Of a stretch of 64,000 bases of DNA, positions 5,856-48,925 are shown in pieces. A program made the position numbers and the translations under genes. The first letter of the stretch is position 1; every line of letters starts with the position of its first letter. Origin of the DNA: Escherichia coli (lineage in GTDB: Bacteria > Pseudomonadota > Gammaproteobacteria > Enterobacterales > Enterobacteriaceae); assembly GCA_025336685.1 (NCBI GenBank), contig GCA_025336685.1_4717.1, one strand, 5' to 3'. The notes below the pieces were generated by a model. That model was not told where the DNA came from, made no database searches, and was given only the letters and a program-made list of their open reading frames with translations.

Positions 5856-6515
5856 TTATTTGTCAGGGTCTGGAAAATAGTAATATCGCCAATACAACAT
5901 AGCAATCGCATTTCTTATTCGACGCGCCTCGAAACGACGGCCGAGAAAGGACTTGTAACAAGAATCGCGAACCATAAACAACTCATGGCTCGATATCATC
6001 AGAACCACGATCTCTCTTATATACGAATTGCAGCACTCGATAAACGGATCTGTATCGTACGTATATTTCCTGGCACTACCTATCCCCAACTCTCTATTTA
6101 ACTCACGACAGTTTATCAAAGACTTCGCACAACTGATAAGCCGGACGAAGTCCCGTAAATTGCGGCGAAAGCAAAAATGTCGCCAGGTTCTTAGTGCGTT
6201 ATGTAGCGGACCTAGGATATCTATTCCGATTTTTACAATGTCCGCATCTTTCTTTAATACTTTTTTGTAATACTTCCTATCGTTCGATAATCCATTAAAC
6301 TCATAATTACAATTATATAGCTTATTCGTGCATTCAACCATCTCGTCGATGTATGATAAGAAGTAGTCCACTAATCTAACTGCTTTGTTATCGTCGTACT
6401 GTTCAGTCAGCAGGCGAAGCTGGAGTAGTCGTTTTCGGAAGCGGCGAATACGCCATTGCCACCAAAACCATCGAATATCCCGAATAGGTTTTACTGTCTC
6501 TGTATTAGAGTTCAT
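5856..6515 (-). CDS. hypothetical basic, W/R-rich protein
   Basis: 219-aa ORF in an AT-rich block. Confidence 0.45.
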   Translation of the reverse strand: MNSNTETVKPIRDIRWFWWQWRIRRFRKRLLQLRLLTEQYDDNKAVRLVDYFLSYIDEMVECTNKLYNCNYEFNGLSNDRKYYKKVLKKDADIVKIGIDILGPLHNALRTWRHFCFRRNLRDFVRLISCAKSLINCRELNRELGIGSARKYTYDTDPFIECCNSYIREIVVLMISSHELFMVRDSCYKSFLGRRFEARRIRNAIAMLYWRYYYFPDPDK

Positions 6516-7149
6516 CGTTATTGATACCCTCTATTAGTTGTACCGCAACCTCTCTTTCGGTGTTGTAAAAGAACTTGCGATGGAACCGAACAAGAAGCCT
6601 TTCAAATTTACGTTGCACGATCTTTTTGCGTTCGATATGGCCCAGGGAGAGCAAAGCACCCATGCAACGTACCGCCTGTTCAAGAACTTGTTTCGCGGTA
6701 TCATGATCATCCGGCAACGGTAAATCTTCTTCGTCGTCTTTAGCGATAAGACGTCTAATGATGTTATCGATGCGTATCTCATCGCCGTTAATAAAAGCAC
6801 CTTTCTCCCATTCATCAAACCGTTGATGGATTTGACGTTGTAGGTTGGCCCTATCTTCCGTTAACTCTTTCAACTGGTTTTCTAAGTTGAATACGGTACG
6901 GCGATCTGTTTCAGTGAATCTTTCCGACTCTTTATACCACCAATCATTACGTGCCAGTAAATCGTTGACACGCGATACCATCCGACGACATTCACCAACA
7001 AGTCCATCACCATTCGGTAACTCTGTGCCGAAATAACATTTGTATTTATAACGCGTAACACGGATTAAACGTTTCGCTAGAAAACCTTGTTTTTCCAGTT
7101 TCTTCTTCAGCTGTATGTATTTCTCTTCTTTTGTTTCCATTAATTCCAT
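6505..7149 (-). CDS. hypothetical protein
   Basis: 214-aa ORF, charged/coiled-coil-like composition. Confidence 0.45.
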   Translation of the reverse strand: MELMETKEEKYIQLKKKLEKQGFLAKRLIRVTRYKYKCYFGTELPNGDGLVGECRRMVSRVNDLLARNDWWYKESERFTETDRRTVFNLENQLKELTEDRANLQRQIHQRFDEWEKGAFINGDEIRIDNIIRRLIAKDDEEDLPLPDDHDTAKQVLEQAVRCMGALLSLGHIERKKIVQRKFERLLVRFHRKFFYNTEREVAVQLIEGINNDEL

Positions 7150-7538
7150 GATGTTGTACCTCGTTCAGCAATCAGGAGGGTCGTGGTTGTGCTTTTCACT
7201 AATCTATTAAAGTCTTGATATATCCGCCTGAGGGATGATTTCAAATTGCAATAACGGTTGAAATAAACCTTCAGGTCATCTTTTGTCACCGTCTCCGTAT
7301 TTATTTTCGTAGAAACACCGAGATCGATAAACTCTTTTCTTAATTGGGATAATTCGTCAAGAAGTCGATGATGGCTTAGATAAATAATAGATTTATCGGA
7401 TAACAACTCGCCGGTTATCCGGCTCTGGCGTTCATCGAGATATTGGAGCCGCCATTCAATTCGCTTACGTAATTTATCAAGTAAATCAACAAAAGCGGTA
7501 TAGCTGTTAACGGCTAGGTTAACTTGACTCGCTATCAT
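7140..7538 (-). CDS. hypothetical protein
   Basis: 132-aa ORF. Confidence 0.45.
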   Translation of the reverse strand: MIASQVNLAVNSYTAFVDLLDKLRKRIEWRLQYLDERQSRITGELLSDKSIIYLSHHRLLDELSQLRKEFIDLGVSTKINTETVTKDDLKVYFNRYCNLKSSLRRIYQDFNRLVKSTTTTLLIAERGTTSWN

Positions 7539-8810: not shown

Positions 8811-9107
8811 TTATACCGCCACCTTAGCCTTGATAGCAGGGTGTGATTGATAACCGACGAATACAAAGTCTTCGTAGCGGTAATCCGTAATACTTTCCGG
8901 TTTACGTACGATTGTTAGCTTCGGTAATGGATACGGCTCACGACTAAGTTGCTCTTTAACCTGTTCGAAATGGTTGTGATAGATGTGGCAATCCCCACCC
9001 GTCCACACGAACTCACCAACGTCCATATTCAACTGCTGGGCAAGCATATGCGTTAGCAACGAATATGATGCGATGTTGAATGGAACACCTAAAAATACGT
9101 CAGCACT
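8811..9107 (-). CDS. thyA: thymidylate synthase, exon 2
   Basis: [25 protein letters not shown]...[10 protein letters not shown] matches the ThyA C-terminal half; joins in frame to exon 1 ending ...LSCQLYQR. Confidence 0.85.
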
Positions 9108-10214
9108 CATTCTGTTCAGATAAGGTCGTTAATCTTATCCCGTTAAAATAACAGCTGTAGATTATCTCTACAGTTCGGACTATATCACGATCTCCTTCCC
9201 TGGAGACCCCTCCCGTTTCACACCCACTTGGGCGTTACGCTACTCATCACTATTTTTATTCATCCGTTTAGTGCTTTCGCTAGTCTCTGGGCATTCTTCT
9301 ACAAGTCTGTACGATTCAAATTTGGGATTTTTACTACCTAATCGATAAAGTATCGTTGCCGGAACAACACCTAACTGCCGAGCCGCCTCAGTTAAAGAGA
9401 CATACTGAATTCCGTCGATTTCCACTTTACGTGCTGTAGTGGGAATCTTCCCCTTATTCACTTCGGCAAGACGACGTCGCGTCTCTTCTGTATGGTGTCG
9501 CCCATAGAACGAATTCTTTTCCCCGGTTCGGGTTTTTGCAAACTCTGATATCTTTCGACGAGTTTCTTCGCCAACCTTTACACCTAGGCGTCTAGCCCTA
9601 GACGCCGCGATGTTTTCGGGAGTGCATACTTTTCGCCGAATGAGTTCACGTGTTTCCGGTGTATGTGTTCGACCATACATCCCGTTACGTTCGCCCGGAT
9701 TGCCATGAACAGCGCGCCTTTGTTCAGGCGACATCGAAGCGAATCGATCGTTAACGACTTTAGTTATTTTCTCGATTATGTCATCGCGACGTGGGTTTCT
9801 CGATAAATTATCACCGCCTAAAGCACCTTTCCCGATATTGAGAGATGCTTCTTCCGGGATGCTATCGATATACACCTGCTCTAAAGCGTATGCCTCTTCT
9901 CGGGTACTACATTCATCGATATCCACGGTGATAAATCCACCACGGTTATGGATATCTTGTAATTTAGCGTTGTGGTGAGAACCATTACGCAAAGCCGATC
10001 TGTGCGTAGCTAACCGCTGATTAATGTTCCCGGTGCTACCAACATAGACATCGCCGTCTTGAGTACATAACCGATATACTACTGGTTTTTTCATACTGCC
10101 TCCTTTAAAAGAGAGACAGACTTGTAGAAGGTTAGCAACGGATTAGCCCGTAGGCTTTCCCGTTTTAAGGAGGTTATTCGACGTAGCTCACGCTACGAAG
10201 GCGCAGTTGCGTTT
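9108..10214 (-). other. group I intron (1107 nt) in thyA
   Basis: Exon 1 ends in U, intron ends in G (..CUGAACAGAAUG); P-like UUAAAACGGGAAAGCC, Q-like AAUCCGUUGC, R-like CCCAGAGACUAGCGAAAG, S-like GUGAUAUAGUCCG; last ~35 nt closely resemble the T4 td intron 3' end as I recall it. Confidence 0.8.
9240..10094 (-). CDS. GIY-YIG homing endonuclease encoded inside the thyA intron
   Basis: N-terminus VVYRLCTQDGDVYVGSTGNINQRLATH (GIY-YIG), repeated NUMOD-like GxxNxxYGRxHTxETR segments, C-terminal HTH-like region; ATG 10094 preceded by AGGAGG. Confidence 0.85.
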   Translation of the reverse strand: MKKPVVYRLCTQDGDVYVGSTGNINQRLATHRSALRNGSHHNAKLQDIHNRGGFITVDIDECSTREEAYALEQVYIDSIPEEASLNIGKGALGGDNLSRNPRRDDIIEKITKVVNDRFASMSPEQRRAVHGNPGERNGMYGRTHTPETRELIRRKVCTPENIAASRARRLGVKVGEETRRKISEFAKTRTGEKNSFYGRHHTEETRRRLAEVNKGKIPTTARKVEIDGIQYVSLTEAARQLGVVPATILYRLGSKNPKFESYRLVEECPETSESTKRMNKNSDE

Positions 10215-10937
10215 ACGCTGGTAAAGCTGACAGGATAAAGCACGTGTTGGTACGTTATGCGCATTCAACCAAAGTTCTGTTTCACTGCGTCGTACATCAT
10301 CCGTAACCCACTGGGTTCTTAATACGTCGTTGCGCTGGACATAATCAACGCGTTCATCGAGTGTGAGTTCGTGGGTATAGAACTGATAGAATGAATGGCA
10401 CGGAGCGAGATGCATATCGTCTAAATCACCTACGTTCCATGCGCTAACGATGATCCGTCGAGAATCAGGATCTTCTTTAAGCTGACGCATCACGTTTGCA
10501 ATCTGATCGTGATGTCTAACATACACGAGGTGTTTTAGCATACCGTCATTAAGAATGCCGAAATATTCATAGCCGCGTTGCATCAACTCACGAGTACGTT
10601 CTGTATCGTGCGGAACAACCACTTTATAGTCGATCCATTCCCGCCATTGTTTGCCGTAAATCGGTCCTAGATTCCCTTCTTCGTCAGCCCATTCATTCCA
10701 GATACGAACACCGTTATCTTGAAGATAAGCAACGTTTGTGTCGCCGTTAAGAAACCAGAGCAGTTCGTGGATAACGCTCTTAAGGTGAATCTTCTTGGTG
10801 GTTACCAGCGGAAATCCTTTCTTCAAGTCAAAACGCATCTGACGTCCGAATACGGAACGGGTCCCGGTCCCCGTGCGGTCGGCTTTATCGCGACCGTTAT
10901 CCATGATGTCTTGCAAAAGGTCCAAATACTGTTTCAT
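10215..10937 (-). CDS. thyA: thymidylate synthase, exon 1
   Basis: [31 protein letters not shown]...[32 protein letters not shown]...LSCQLYQR; in-frame read-through into the intron gives KRNCAFVA-stop. Confidence 0.85.
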
Positions 10938-13273: not shown

Positions 13274-14599
13274 TCACTTCAGAAGCTTAGACATCGCCAT
13301 GCTTCGCGCTAACGCAACATCATACGCATCCATGATCGCGTCACCGATAGCGGTATGACGGATCAGCGGAATACCCATGTCTGGATACTCTTTGGTGCCT
13401 AAGATGGATACCGGTTTGTCTTGATACGCAGCAATCATCGAACGGATATCCTGAACCTGGTTATAACGACAAACTGGCTTAAAGCCCGCTTTACGGAACC
13501 AATGCTCTAATTGAGGCCAATCTGTTTCACCGCGAGCAAGATAATAGAAGGTATCCTTACCGTAGTATTCAGTCATTTTGTCACGAATACTGTTGACGAA
13601 CGCATTTACTTCGGTGATGGCTTCTTTATAACCCATTGCCTTACAATGTTGAAAACAATAGTCGCGCGCTTCCTTTGGTGCTTTGGTTTGCCACCATTCT
13701 ACTGTTGATTCACTGATACGACCACCGTCAGCGATTTGACCATGAACGTCAGGGAAGATATCTATACGCGGACCGTTAACAATGGATTCTGGATTAGCCA
13801 GATCGAAGAACACGATACCGATTTCCAGCAATACTCCATTCTTTTCCAGACTAAGGTTTTCAACATCTAAACAAAATGCAGGCTTCTCTACCGCTAACGG
13901 CTCGAACGAATGGTTGCTGGTATCCGATTCGGTTTTAAGTTCGACGACAACCGGATCGGTATCCGTAGGTTTCAGTTCTACTACAGCATCATCGAGTCCC
14001 GATAACGAAAAATAGTCTTCGAAGAAATCGGGTATCGTCATGCCATGCAAATTGATATCGCAATCTTCCAACCATTGCTTCAACTGGTGCTCACCGGCAT
14101 GAATCGCTAAACGACATGGTCCGGAACGATCATCTAGCGCTGCATCGATCCAGAAGAAAGCGCGTATAAGTAAGTAAGGATTGTACTCCGCGATGATTTC
14201 TTGGCTAGCCGAGAAATCGTACACCATTAGTTGTGTTATTCCCTTACGAGTGTTATACGGATCAACTTTCAATCGACGCACTATTTCTTCTACGAATTCC
14301 AACGCACGCGTGTACGATGTGGACCCACCTTGTTCATACGAACATATACCCGTCAAAAGTTCCTTATAGGACGCATATGGAACCATAGGCGATAATTTGT
14401 ACGACAGTTCAGTATTGTAATTATCGCATAATTTCTTCGGGGCGATAGCATCCTGTATCGCTGTAATAAACGCCGGTCCATCAATATCAAACAACCATCC
14501 TTGACGCCGGTATGCAGTGTATCGTAATAACGCACCGATAACTGCCTGGGGCGGTGTATATTCTTTTCCGTTAATTTCAAACAGTAGTTTGCTCATCAT
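13274..14599 (-). CDS. protein with C-terminal DnaQ-like (DEDDh) 3'-5' exonuclease domain
   Basis: FCLDVENLS (Exo I D-x-E), later HTAIGDAIMDAYDVAL (Exo III H-x-A-x-x-D-A); N-terminal ~230 aa unassigned. Confidence 0.6.
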   Translation of the reverse strand: MMSKLLFEINGKEYTPPQAVIGALLRYTAYRRQGWLFDIDGPAFITAIQDAIAPKKLCDNYNTELSYKLSPMVPYASYKELLTGICSYEQGGSTSYTRALEFVEEIVRRLKVDPYNTRKGITQLMVYDFSASQEIIAEYNPYLLIRAFFWIDAALDDRSGPCRLAIHAGEHQLKQWLEDCDINLHGMTIPDFFEDYFSLSGLDDAVVELKPTDTDPVVVELKTESDTSNHSFEPLAVEKPAFCLDVENLSLEKNGVLLEIGIVFFDLANPESIVNGPRIDIFPDVHGQIADGGRISESTVEWWQTKAPKEARDYCFQHCKAMGYKEAITEVNAFVNSIRDKMTEYYGKDTFYYLARGETDWPQLEHWFRKAGFKPVCRYNQVQDIRSMIAAYQDKPVSILGTKEYPDMGIPLIRHTAIGDAIMDAYDVALARSMAMSKLLK

Positions 14600-14611
14600 A
14601 ACACCTTTTCA

Positions 14612-46019: not shown

Positions 46020-46257
46020 TTAGCAATGGTTGTTAGTTGCTTCTATTTCATCAAGATACGGTTCTACGTCATCGCCCTCCACGAATTCGTTGAACCAACA
46101 GTCAATGGTAGAAATAACCGGTGACTGGTGTTCACATTTCTTAGATACCTTAAAAGGCACGTTATTATCCATCATACCGAGTTCGGGTCGAAAACGCCCG
46201 AAATGTTTCGCAGTCCAAATGTCTGGGACGATATGGTTGTTCATCGCGTCCCCATCG
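46020..46257 (-). CDS. RNA polymerase beta-prime-like N-terminal subunit, exon 2
   Basis: Starts with codons for DGDAMNNHIVPDIW, the continuation of NADF|DGD; ends at stop 46020. Confidence 0.75.
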
Positions 46258-47669
46258 CTTCAGTTTAATTTGGTCGAACGTATTCCAATTTCAATCCATG
46301 CCAATCACCGCCTTTACTAATAGCGGTACTTATCGTAGTCGGATGCACTTTATGTTCTTCAGCAAGGGCGAATCTATCAGGATAGACTTTATGTGTACCA
46401 TCCTCAAACACCACCTTTACTGGGAACCTTTGTAATCCACCAGTTTTTGGTCTAGGCTCTTTAGGAATATATTTACATTCGTTCACATCGCCAGGATAAT
46501 TCCTTGTCCACCATGCTTTCCAACCGTTTCTGGAAAACATCTTATCTCCATGACATAAGCTATGACTTAATGTCGCATAGCTCACTCCCACCATTGTTGC
46601 CGCCATTACGGTACTTTCCATGTGATACTTGTCTCCATCGGGCGATATTAAAACCAACCCGCCGTAAATAACATACGACTTACCGGCATCTTCGGATGTG
46701 AAACCGACAAATTCCATTCCGTGGGTAGCCGCATCGTAATATTTCATCAACGGCCATTGTCGTGTAGTACGGAACCATTTTGAAATCTGGGTGTGTGGGA
46801 TACCGTAACACTTAGCCGCATCGCGCATACTGTAATGTTCGGTTATCTCGCCAGTTCTCAAATCCTTTATCCATACTGTTTTAGCTTTCCAGTTCAAGCC
46901 CGTACGATAGGCATGGTACGTATTTTGGGATTGACTCGTCCATTCAAGATTATCCAAGCGGTTGTTATCTTTAACTCCGTCAAGATGGTTACCTACTAAC
47001 ATTGATCCCTCAGGCAGCATAGGTTTTTCACGAAAGGTGGATAAAACAACATGATGAGCTGCTATATCTCTACCTTCATGTCTGACCCTTACATATCCTA
47101 ATACGTTAGTTTTTCCTACTTCCTCTCCAGTATAGGCATCTATAATGACACCCTCCACAGAAGCGGCAAGTCCGGGATAATCTTTACAATGGTAAAATCC
47201 TGGGAATTTTGTCTCTCTAAGTTTCATCTTCTCTCCGCTATCGGCCAACAGAGAGAAAACGTTCCTCGGAGGCCGACGTTTTCAAATTAAACTACGTTAT
47301 CGACTATATCTTCATCCTCATTGCGAGGAGTCTCCCGTTTGGGTCTGTGTTTAACAGAGCCTACTCTACTCGACATCGCGTCTTTCGATAGTCTGTGAGC
47401 ACACATCTTAACGAACATTCGTGGACTCCTAAACAGGTGAACATTCTTGTTAAGATGCTTCGCTGCGGGTTATTCCCGTCCTACCTCTTTTACCATACCC
47501 AGTTCATTACGCTGGCCCTCATCTATGTCGCCACGATGAGTTGGTGTGTAGTCCGATTACAGAAACTTCCCGTCAATTAGAGAGTTTTAACTATGTTCCT
47601 GTTACCAGAAACCCGACTCCGATGATATCAATAAATCAACGTAAGTTATTGATTTAATTGAAGAAACTG
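46258..47669 (-). other. group I intron (1412 nt) in the RNAP beta-prime-like gene
   Basis: 5' splice after U (GCCGACUU|CAG); candidate IGS GAGUCGG pairs with exon CCGACUU including a U.G wobble; P AAUUGACGGGAAG, Q AAUAACCCGCAGC, R GCUCACAGACUAUCGAAAG, S GAAGAUAUAGUCGA all in the first ~400 nt; 3' end ...CUGAAG with terminal G. Confidence 0.8.
46265..47227 (-). CDS. HNH homing endonuclease encoded in the 3' part of the intron
   Basis: HHVVLSTFREKPMLPEGSMLVGNHLDGVKDNNRLDNLEW (HNH core); track start 47248 is TTG, ATG 47227 has GGAGAG RBS. Confidence 0.8.
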   Translation of the reverse strand: MKLRETKFPGFYHCKDYPGLAASVEGVIIDAYTGEEVGKTNVLGYVRVRHEGRDIAAHHVVLSTFREKPMLPEGSMLVGNHLDGVKDNNRLDNLEWTSQSQNTYHAYRTGLNWKAKTVWIKDLRTGEITEHYSMRDAAKCYGIPHTQISKWFRTTRQWPLMKYYDAATHGMEFVGFTSEDAGKSYVIYGGLVLISPDGDKYHMESTVMAATMVGVSYATLSHSLCHGDKMFSRNGWKAWWTRNYPGDVNECKYIPKEPRPKTGGLQRFPVKVVFEDGTHKVYPDRFALAEEHKVHPTTISTAISKGGDWHGLKLEYVRPN

Positions 47670-48925
47670 AAGTCGGCATTGTATCCCTTAAGGATCATCA
47701 CGCTTAACCCGATGGTGTTATCCTGCGGATCGCGTTTAACCTTGGTGATTTCAAGACATTGGTTACTGCTTCGGTCAAGTGATGGGTTTCGAACAAAACC
47801 ACACACAATCCCATCGAACGGTGTATCGGCAATAAGCTCATCGTGTAGCTCGCTCATCATCGGGTGGTAATTACGGACATGTTCCGCAACGAACGCACGT
47901 GCTGCTCTTGGTGAATAACCACGATGGAATAACTTGGATTGGATGTGTTCTTTATTGGTTAATGTAAATGGCGCGTATGGGAAATGCAGATGATAATAAC
48001 GATGGTTCGCTGTTATCGAACTGATTACGGTACGCGTGGTGAATGGGTGTAATGTACCTAATATGTTTTTACGCGTGATACCTTTCTTCTTACCGATGAA
48101 CTCATCGAAAATCGCCGAGTGGTACTGCAGCAGCTTCAGTTGTACTTTCGCCATCCAGTTTTCTTTCTTTCTGGCGCTCAAAGGTGTTGTTGGGTGATAG
48201 ATACTATTCAATGTGCCGATAGCATCGATCGCACCTTCCATTTTGCTATCTGCATAACGGCCGGTCGGTGTATTTTCGATAACGAACATCATGGCCGCAG
48301 GAAAGCTGATATACTGGCTGAAGAACTTATCACGATGGATACGGATGAATTCTCGTAGCGTGTCAACTTTCTCTGTGTTCTTCGGTCCACGTAACGTAGG
48401 TCCTTTATACAAGATCTCCATGATGCGATCGAAGTTCTGTATAAAGCTATTTACGCCACGTCGTATCCCGAATACATCGAATTGCTGCTCCAGATAGTTC
48501 TTGAGTTCGATGGGTCGTTTTACATTTGGACGGTAACTGGCATCAATGAGCCACGTCATCGTTTCGAAGCTTTTGATATTCAACTCGCTTGCCAGCACGA
48601 GATGGACCAACGGGTTAATGAACGCATCGATTCCTTCAGGGACACGCGCCCAGACCGTCGAACGAATCTCCTGTTCTGCTGGGTAGGTCACAACCGTTTT
48701 ACAGTTTGGACACACCGTGCCGAGCAGCTCACCACGATTGTAAAAACCGCATCCACATTGCGGTGTGATATCCAACGTATCGCTGGAGTAAACACGGGTG
48801 ATAAAACTGTTTAATTTCTTCTTCTCTTCGACGACTTTTGTATCGTAATCGTTCAACAAAATCGGCGTAAAGGGAAGTTCTGCGAGCTGTCTATCGAAAC
48901 TCACGATATCGAGCATGATGGCCAT
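47670..48925 (-). CDS. RNA polymerase beta-prime-like N-terminal subunit, exon 1
   Basis: Zinc-ribbon CGCGFYNRGELLGTVCPNCK; C-terminal ...IGLSVMILKGYNADF parallels bacterial ...LHPLVCAAYNADF; the ORF reads through into the intron as SFFN-stop. Confidence 0.8.

Follow-up and report, generated by a model that had tools for sequence, protein, structure and literature searches.

We asked why the thymidylate synthase gene (thyA) on a 64,000-nt stretch of DNA from an Escherichia coli assembly (GCA_025336685.1, contig GCA_025336685.1_4717.1; the whole stretch is referred to here as the window) falls into two separated pieces with a nuclease gene between them, and whether this reflects a split enzyme, a decayed gene or a single gene carrying a mobile element. 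The last is highly probable: a mobile group I intron with a GIY-YIG endonuclease appears to lie between an Arg and a Ser codon of a phage thyA. Anatomy, homology, presence/absence polymorphism, low intron divergence and scrambled flanking sequence were observed directly, and splicing, cleavage and the position of cleavage are predicted from these and from analogy with characterised systems.

The interrupted gene and its predicted product

With 92-96% identity, the window runs collinear with positions 123509-186180 of a 237-kb jumbo phage, Escherichia phage vB_EcoM_Goslar (NC_048170), and a nuclear shell protein (ChmA) and a PhuZ tubulin are annotated in that stretch of Goslar. The Goslar thyA (gp141) is uninterrupted, with 339 codons (1020-nt gene), and relative to it the window contains exactly 1107 extra nt, placed between the codon of the catalytic Arg (CGT) and a Ser codon (AGT). 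This comparison fixes the boundaries of the insert at 9108..10214 independently of any RNA model. Of the flanking exons (Table 1), exon 1 shares ~93% identity with Goslar thyA in its 5' part, and exon 2, past the first ~13 nt, shares ~94% in the 3' part. A second intron-less contig (L019) carries the same 1020-nt thyA, likewise uninterrupted.

Joining the exons at the predicted junction (...CAGCGU/AGUGCU..., that is ...UACCAGCGU/AGUGCUGAC...; a slash marks the junction throughout) gives a 339-aa ThyA that matches Pfam Thymidylat_synt (PF00303) over profile positions 1-266 of 266 (E=2e-117), aligns without gaps to Goslar ThyA and is 98% identical to an uninterrupted 339-aa homologue (P0001). 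Conserved catalytic motifs and intact reading frames are kept in both exons. An earlier note on this DNA, made from the sequence alone, had proposed that the two exons reconstitute a complete ThyA; this full-length match and gapless alignment agree with it, and its exon coordinates and sequences and the 1107-nt spacing were exact. Read without splicing, the exon-1 frame would continue for eight codons into the intron (KRNCAFVA) and end at a UGA stop in the GUGA loop of helix P2 (open reading frame, ORF, 10188..10937). The related thyA introns of phages Joad and AH06 are entered and stopped in the same way, and those of beta22, SPbetaL1, LY2, SL2 and the td gene of phage T4 open with an in-frame UAA.

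A predicted group I ribozyme in two halves

Two covariance models (CMs) were built from the thyA introns of other phages, with the window left out and the structures supplied by RNAalifold: R1 from the 3' halves of eight introns, and R2 from the 5' halves of seven introns together with nine exon bases. R1 matched 9108..9290 (-) over its full model length (119.7 bits, E=8.3e-33), ending on the predicted last intron base, and R2 matched 10131..10223 (-) (66.3 bits, E=3.7e-12), pairing exon GCGU with intron GCGC as P1. The only other match to each model on either strand of the 64 kb was an RNA polymerase intron near 47.3-47.6 kb. Since the window had taken no part in model building, matches at E=8e-33 and E=4e-12 indicate a resemblance far beyond chance.

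Helix inspection gave full pairing in 15/15 helices of the window intron, and the catalytic core P3-P8 is present, including the P3/P7 pseudoknot and the GAUAUAGUC element. P1 was predicted independently by RNAalifold and by CM R2. In it, guide GCGC pairs with exon-1 GCGU, leaving a U.G pair at the 5' splice site (U = 10215), and the helix covaries in beta22 and SPbetaL1 (exon CCGU, guide GCGG). P10 forms between guide ACU (10205..10207) and the AGU that opens exon 2, with covariation in phage JA29 (UGA with UCA, read from the sequences). The last intron base is the G at 9108 (...GAAUG). Across nine related introns, 390 of 392 helix cells held standard pairs and 35 of 44 pairs showed compensatory changes, with helix strands for this count picked by eye at conserved junctions. 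A MAFFT alignment of nine ORF-excised introns was dropped for pair counts, as variable helices fell out of register, though the cores aligned well.

Judged by sequence and predicted fold, the thyA insert is a group I intron, IA-type with P7.1/P7.2, related to the td and beta22 introns, and it is probably self-splicing. P7.1 and P7.2, lying between P7 and P3', are extra helices characteristic of subgroup IA, and the assignment follows the architecture of the td intron. The earlier note had reported core elements of a group I intron, which are borne out by the two CM matches, the complete P1-P9.2 set of helices, the U.G pair at the 5' splice site and the terminal G.

A 15-bp stem, P6a, encloses the loop with the ORF (805 nt). 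The equivalent closing stems are 5-9 bp in Joad, JA29, LY2 and td, and the candidate in AH06 (6 bp) is weaker. The last 24 codons of the ORF (9240..9310) overlap P6a', P6', P7 and P7.1, resembling td, in which the 3' end of the I-TevI ORF overlaps P6'/P7 (PMC2988022).

Table 1. Coordinates of thyA, the predicted intron and its features in the window
Feature	Coordinates	Strand	Details
thyA exon 1	10215..10937	-	241 codons, ends CAG CGT = ...LSCQLYQR
thyA exon 2	8811..9107	-	98 codons + stop, begins AGU GCU GAC = SAD
Intervening sequence	9108..10214	-	1107 nt, 3' end ...GAUUAACGACCUUAUCUGAACAGAAUG
Divergent exon patch, candidate co-conversion tract and/or endonuclease target region	9081..10231	-	about -17 to +27 from junction
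5' ribozyme domain (P1, P2, P3 5' strand, P4-P5-P4', P6 5' strand)	10131..10214	-	CM R2
Internal guide sequence ACUGCGC	10201..10207	-	complementary to ligated exons GCGU/AGU
P2	10182..10197	-	GUGA loop
P3 5' strand	10168..10173	-	CCUCCU, pairs GGGAGG
P4-P5-P4'	10138..10163	-	P5 loop UACG
P6a 5' strand	10116..10130	-	CUUCUACAAGUCUGU; perfect complement of 9296..9310
Shine-Dalgarno AAGGAGG	10099..10105	-	upstream of endonuclease ORF
Predicted homing endonuclease gene	9240..10094	-	284 aa, GIY-YIG + NUMOD3 + helix-turn-helix, P6a loop
P6a 3' strand	9296..9310	-	within last 24 codons of endonuclease ORF
3' ribozyme domain	9108..9290	-	CM R1 match; terminal G 9108
P7 5' strand	9278..9285	-	P7 = GACUA/UAGUC
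P7.1	9248..9273	-	helix inspection
P7.2	9220..9235	-	helix inspection
P3 3' strand	9209..9214	-	helix inspection
P8	9189..9208	-	helix inspection
P7 3' strand	9177..9182	-	helix inspection
P9	9155..9173	-	helix inspection
P9.1	9142..9152	-	helix inspection
P9.2	9118..9140	-	helix inspection

The intron-encoded endonuclease

The ORF in the P6a loop matched the GIY-YIG family (PF01541, E=3.9e-12, 46.7 bits against a cutoff of 22.6) and contains two Pfam-detected NUMOD3 repeats (E=1e-13), so that the GIY-YIG N-terminal domain and NUMOD-like repeats read earlier at 9240..10094 were recovered by profile search. An I-TevI-type DNA-binding domain was found by similarity to PDB 1i3j (E=2.4e-9). In an alignment read by eye, the residues at the catalytic Arg, Glu and Asn positions of I-TevI are mostly present in the window enzyme. 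The I-TevI zinc finger (CxC...CxxC) has no counterpart, and a further NUMOD3-like repeat stands in its place. I-BmoI also lacks the zinc finger (PMC5009752), which places the window enzyme with the I-BmoI subtype. On these features the ORF is predicted to be an intact GIY-YIG homing endonuclease of I-BmoI type.

Identity to the window enzyme was highest among the thyA-intron enzymes of phiKZ-like Pseudomonas phages (SL2 and others, 43-44%), followed by those of Bacillus phage LY2 (41%), SPbetaL1 (intron ORF, 38.5%) and Erwinia phage Joad (35%), and by I-TevI (29%). The beta22 intron retains a 41-aa ORF remnant that is 63% identical to the C-terminal domain of the window enzyme, with an exact shared run of TEAARQLGVVPATIL. 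SL2 was considered as the keeper of an I-TevI ORF remnant (shared CAUAAAUGCCUAACGACUAUC), and this candidate was dropped, the stretch being P6'/J6-7/P7 core sequence. A hairpin hiding the ribosome-binding site, as in td, was not supported by folding of 10060..10135 (z=-1.43, not significant).

An insertion site shared with Bacillus and jumbo phages

The earlier note placed the insertion seven codons upstream of the T4 td site, implying that the site was new. The first part holds: the junction in a T4-like td gene (L002) reads ...SVDVFLG/LPFN, and the window junction follows YQR (CAGCGT/AGT), 7 codons (21 nt) upstream. The td-type site is not occupied, GTATTTTTAGGTGTTCCATTC being contiguous within exon 2 of the window. 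The implied novelty does not hold, given beta22 and I-BmoI. In the beta22 thy gene (GenBank L31962, annotated as a joined CDS; intron reported by Bechhofer et al. 1994, cited in PMC11620839) the junction is ..GVR/SNDMGLGNPFN, encoded by GTCCGT/AGT, and SPbetaL1 has GCCCGT/AGT. The Arg/Ser site is occupied in seven other phages: beta22, SPbetaL1, LY2, SL2, Joad, JA29 and AH06. It is thus a site already known from Bacillus phages and common to many large phages.

Edgell and Shub reportedly described, in 2001, a group I intron encoding I-BmoI in the thyA of Bacillus mojavensis. Later papers that review this intron (PMC3664794, PMC5009752, PMC2853131) number the I-BmoI substrate with G-6, a critical G-2, A+4/A+5, G+7 and A+8/C+9 and give GCCCG as the cleavage motif (PMC3664794, PMC5009752). 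This numbering fits GCCCGT/AGTAATGAC, which is the SPbetaL1/beta22 junction sequence save the last base, so that I-BmoI would serve the same Arg/Ser site, as deduced from the later papers; by published numbering its intron thus lies in the same gene and at the same position after the Arg codon CGT as that of the window. The window has G-2, G+7, A+8 and C+9 of the I-BmoI substrate, and the Goslar and L019 alleles share its G-2 and G+7. By its published description, I-BmoI combines a GIY-YIG domain, NUMOD3 repeats and a helix-turn-helix in the absence of a zinc finger, as does the window enzyme. The td and B. mojavensis introns are known to occupy different gene positions and to carry their ORFs in different intron loops (PMC5009752).

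Relatives at the same site differ from the window intron in host, ORF placement and enzyme. The beta22 and I-BmoI introns come from a Bacillus phage and from B. mojavensis, and the window intron belongs to a Gram-negative jumbo phage. The beta22 ribozyme is homologous to that of the window (cores ~51% identical), but its P1 is CCGU/GCGG rather than GCGU/GCGC, and it holds only an ORF remnant, located in P8. Split thyA genes with related ribozymes at the same Arg/Ser site occur in other jumbo phages (Erwinia Joad/RisingSun, AH06, Dickeya JA29, Pseudomonas SL2 and other phiKZ-like phages). Their intron cores are 58-63% identical to that of the window, with AH06, Joad and SL2 at 62-63%. Joad has the same flanking peptide (LSCQLYQR/...), and AH06 shares the P2 stem core, the GUGA loop and the P7' sequence, although its intron enzyme is HNH rather than GIY-YIG. 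The ORF loop is P6a in the window, Joad, JA29, LY2, AH06 and td, P8 in beta22 and SPbetaL1, and P9.1 in SL2. The SL2 intron (L005, 1719..2809) has a contiguous core that is 69% identical to td, with its GIY-YIG gene in the loop of a 9-bp P9.1 stem. In the records of these jumbo phages (for example Joad and JA29) the split thyA is annotated only as fragments; phiKZ-like records list a 'thymidylate synthase', a 'GIY-YIG nuclease' and a 75-aa 'hypothetical protein' that is really exon 2. We found no published description of thyA introns in Goslar-like or phiKZ-like phages in the searchable literature; a database label of 'group I intron endonuclease' exists for the window protein.

The T4 td intron resides in the same gene and has a homologous ribozyme (core ~56% identical) with a different guide sequence, and its I-TevI ORF also lies in the P6a loop. 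Cleavage by I-TevI falls 23/25 nt upstream of the td site (PMC2988022), which, from the td sequence, is 2-4 nt upstream of the position of the window intron. The P9.2 hairpin and 3' terminus (9108..9142, -) match T-even td introns at 34 of 35 positions, far above the rest of the core, which upholds the earlier observation that the 3' end is close to that of td (last 35 nt 97% identical). P9.2 stems vary freely in other relatives. This pattern suggests that P9.2 and the 3' terminus may be a small recombination patch exchanged with a coliphage td intron.

A further point of comparison is PhiPA3 gp210, an experimentally tested HNH intron endonuclease in an RNA polymerase gene of a nucleus-forming phage (Birkholz et al. 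2024, PMC11620839). Like the intron that encodes gp210, the window element appears to be a mobile group I intron with an endonuclease in an essential gene, polymorphic among close relatives; the enzyme and the gene differ.

Low intron divergence and variable flanking exons

At least 11 public contigs from Salmonella/E. coli assemblies and sequencing runs, among them several of 237-244 kb, encode the identical endonuclease protein, under the names 'GIY-YIG nuclease family protein', 'NUMOD3 domain-containing DNA-binding protein' and 'group I intron endonuclease'. Intron divergence was measured between the window and six Goslar-like contigs, and exon differences were counted in three contigs aligned over the whole gene. 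Only 9-10 of 1107 intron positions differed (0.8%), compared with 19-38/723 in exon 1 and 18/297 in exon 2 (about 3-6%). Changes in the endonuclease ORF were all synonymous among the compared contigs.

Differences from intron-less alleles were concentrated around the junction. Compared with Goslar, the window has 27 mismatches in the 60 nt at the junction versus ~2 per 30 nt elsewhere, and in the comparison with L019, where the ThyA proteins share 98% identity, the mismatches cluster between positions -1 and +38 (the L019-type allele reads ..CAGCGA/TCGTGCGAC..). This target stretch also varies to an unusual degree from one intron-less Goslar-like allele to another (QLYQRSCDTVLGKPFNV; MLTARSQDALLGTPFNI; MLLARSQDALLGTPFNI; MLLARSQDTVLGTPFNI), and the rest of the protein is 89-98% identical. 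Taken together, low intron divergence and scrambled flanks point to recent homing. The sequences are most simply read as those of an element that spread recently by homing and took flanking exon along by co-conversion, possibly alongside selection of resistant target variants.

We also considered a role for the endonuclease as a weapon between nucleus-forming, Goslar-like phages that infect the same cell, which would make its target an arms-race locus. By analogy with PhiPA3 gp210 and its action on PhiKZ, the enzyme would be taken into the phage nucleus and would cleave the thyA of competitors that lack the intron, and the intron-less variants MLLARSQDTVLGT, MLTARSQDALLGT and QLYQRSCDTVLGK would be selected escape alleles. 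We regard this extension as tentative and rather doubtful.

Proposed mechanism and alternative explanations

In the mechanism we propose, the intron RNA would fold into a P1-P9.2 ribozyme whose guide pairs with exon-1 GCGU and exon-2 AGU. Free guanosine would then attack the 5' splice site, and the exons would be joined past the terminal G to give an mRNA for the 339-aa ThyA. By analogy with I-BmoI, the endonuclease would bind, as a monomer, exon-2 DNA just downstream of the site in an intron-less thyA and nick each strand a few nt upstream, at about the G of the Arg codon. An allele that already holds the intron would be spared, since its exon 2 is preceded by ...AAUG instead of ...GCGU. Repair of the double-strand break from an intron-bearing genome would copy the intron together with some flanking exon. 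Homing here would require access of the enzyme to DNA inside the ChmA shell; such access to DNA within the phage nucleus has been shown for PhiPA3 gp210 (PMC11620839).

Several observations weigh against this account. Between 8700 and 11000, the thyA intron gave no match to Rfam RF00028, either at the gathering threshold (50 bits) or at E<=10, and the sole Rfam matches at E<=10 (weev_FSE and snoZ161_228) were both chance. The miss is probably due to the ~800-nt ORF-loop insertion in P6a, since the SL2 homologue with its contiguous core scores 69.9 bits and the ORF-bearing td intron falls short at only 36.2 bits. Of the two alignments that bear on the group I assignment in the earlier note, that to the Rfam model was therefore negative and that to the td intron, with its homologous core, positive. 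P1 has four exon pairs only, and the by-eye choice of helix strands means that the covariation count supports the CM matches without replacing them. The I-TevI_DNA-bd Pfam score of the endonuclease (25.8) is just below the curated cutoff of 27. Constraint on the RNA and the ORF, instead of recent transfer, could account for part of the low divergence of the intron. Finally, splicing and cleavage are predictions from sequence.

Some of these observations would suit a decayed, non-splicing relic, with thyA a pseudogene and a host thyA supplying dTMP. Yet despite the short (4 bp) P1 and the RF00028 miss, every helix is intact, as are the exon frames and catalytic motifs, and the same arrangement has been kept in at least six diverged genomes, leaving a relic very improbable. 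We judged it just as hard to credit that there is no intron at all, and that a free-standing homing endonuclease cassette splits the gene into two associating polypeptides (249 aa and 99 aa). Gene callers do return two Thymidylat_synt fragments with a nuclease gene between them, also in Joad and JA29, and exon 2 directly follows an in-frame AUG, with which the insert ends. However, this AUG has no ribosome-binding site and is part of a conserved intron terminus, GAACA(U/G)AAUG; a complete covarying group I ribozyme has ends that coincide to the base with the break in the gene; the break falls between an adjacent Arg and Ser of the catalytic region, where a split enzyme would be unlikely to work; and the GenBank record of beta22, with an intron at this same site, is annotated as a joined CDS.

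A less remote alternative, which we nonetheless consider unlikely, is that the intron splices but is no longer actively mobile, the endonuclease being inactive or kept from its target DNA, and that vertical inheritance with precise loss in Goslar/L019-type phages produced the present distribution. Intron-less alleles differ strongly exactly at the presumed recognition region and could be uncleavable, and phages of this group keep their DNA inside a protein shell (the collinear part of Goslar has annotated homologues of ChmA and PhuZ) that the enzyme may not enter. Against this, an intron up to 6-7 times less diverged than the exons of its carriers (0.8% against 5-6%) is a poor fit to vertical descent, the endonuclease ORF is intact with synonymous differences only, precise loss of a 1107-nt intron is rare, and the flank patches resemble imported sequence. 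A mobile intron that recently spread by homing remains the reading that we favour.

Implications

Current understanding of group I introns and homing endonucleases is unchanged by this locus, which is an ordinary further example at a known site. Its modest interest comes from the signs, at population level, that the intron has recently spread by homing between nucleus-forming phages, together with the variable target region. For annotation, it implies that the Goslar-like thyA in Salmonella and E. coli isolate assemblies, called as two fragments and a nuclease, is very probably one gene with a mobile intron. The locus also extends the known hosts of the beta22/I-BmoI insertion site to a Gram-negative, nucleus-forming phage. 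The range of combinations at this same site, with ORFs in P6a, P8 or P9.1 and GIY-YIG or HNH enzymes, indicates again that the intron, its endonuclease and the host gene each follow a separate evolutionary course. With an intron so little diverged relative to the exons, the locus also offers a natural system for asking how homing works with shell-enclosed phage genomes.

Other features of the window and its relatives

The same thyA intron, with an identical endonuclease, is present in two Goslar-like contigs, L016 (533..2308) and L017 (166..1941), from runs DRR848677 and SRR4022189. Their exon 1 also holds an intein, so that one gene has been invaded by both kinds of element. The intein, of ~342 aa with a LAGLIDADG domain, is inserted at the catalytic cysteine (..DDMHLAP/CFLAGTPV...AVHN/CHSFYQFY), a position that makes the +1 extein residue the ThyA nucleophile.

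Elsewhere in the window, a second group I intron (RF00028, 50.3 bits) was detected at 47281..47660 (-), after an RNA polymerase beta'-like ORF (47654..48925, -), and is also annotated in Goslar. Downstream of it, an HNH_3 ORF (46265..47248, 327 aa) is 29% identical to the Goslar HNH protein gp186. The region containing it has no nucleotide similarity to its Goslar counterpart (window 46247..47296 versus 1433 nt in Goslar), implying that the endonuclease was exchanged at a conserved intron.

Collinearity with Goslar is also broken at three other places: 1370 nt of the window (6162..7531) replace 687 nt, 713 nt (13894..14606) replace 650 nt, and at ~58336 about 185 nt of Goslar (180322-180508) are missing from the window.

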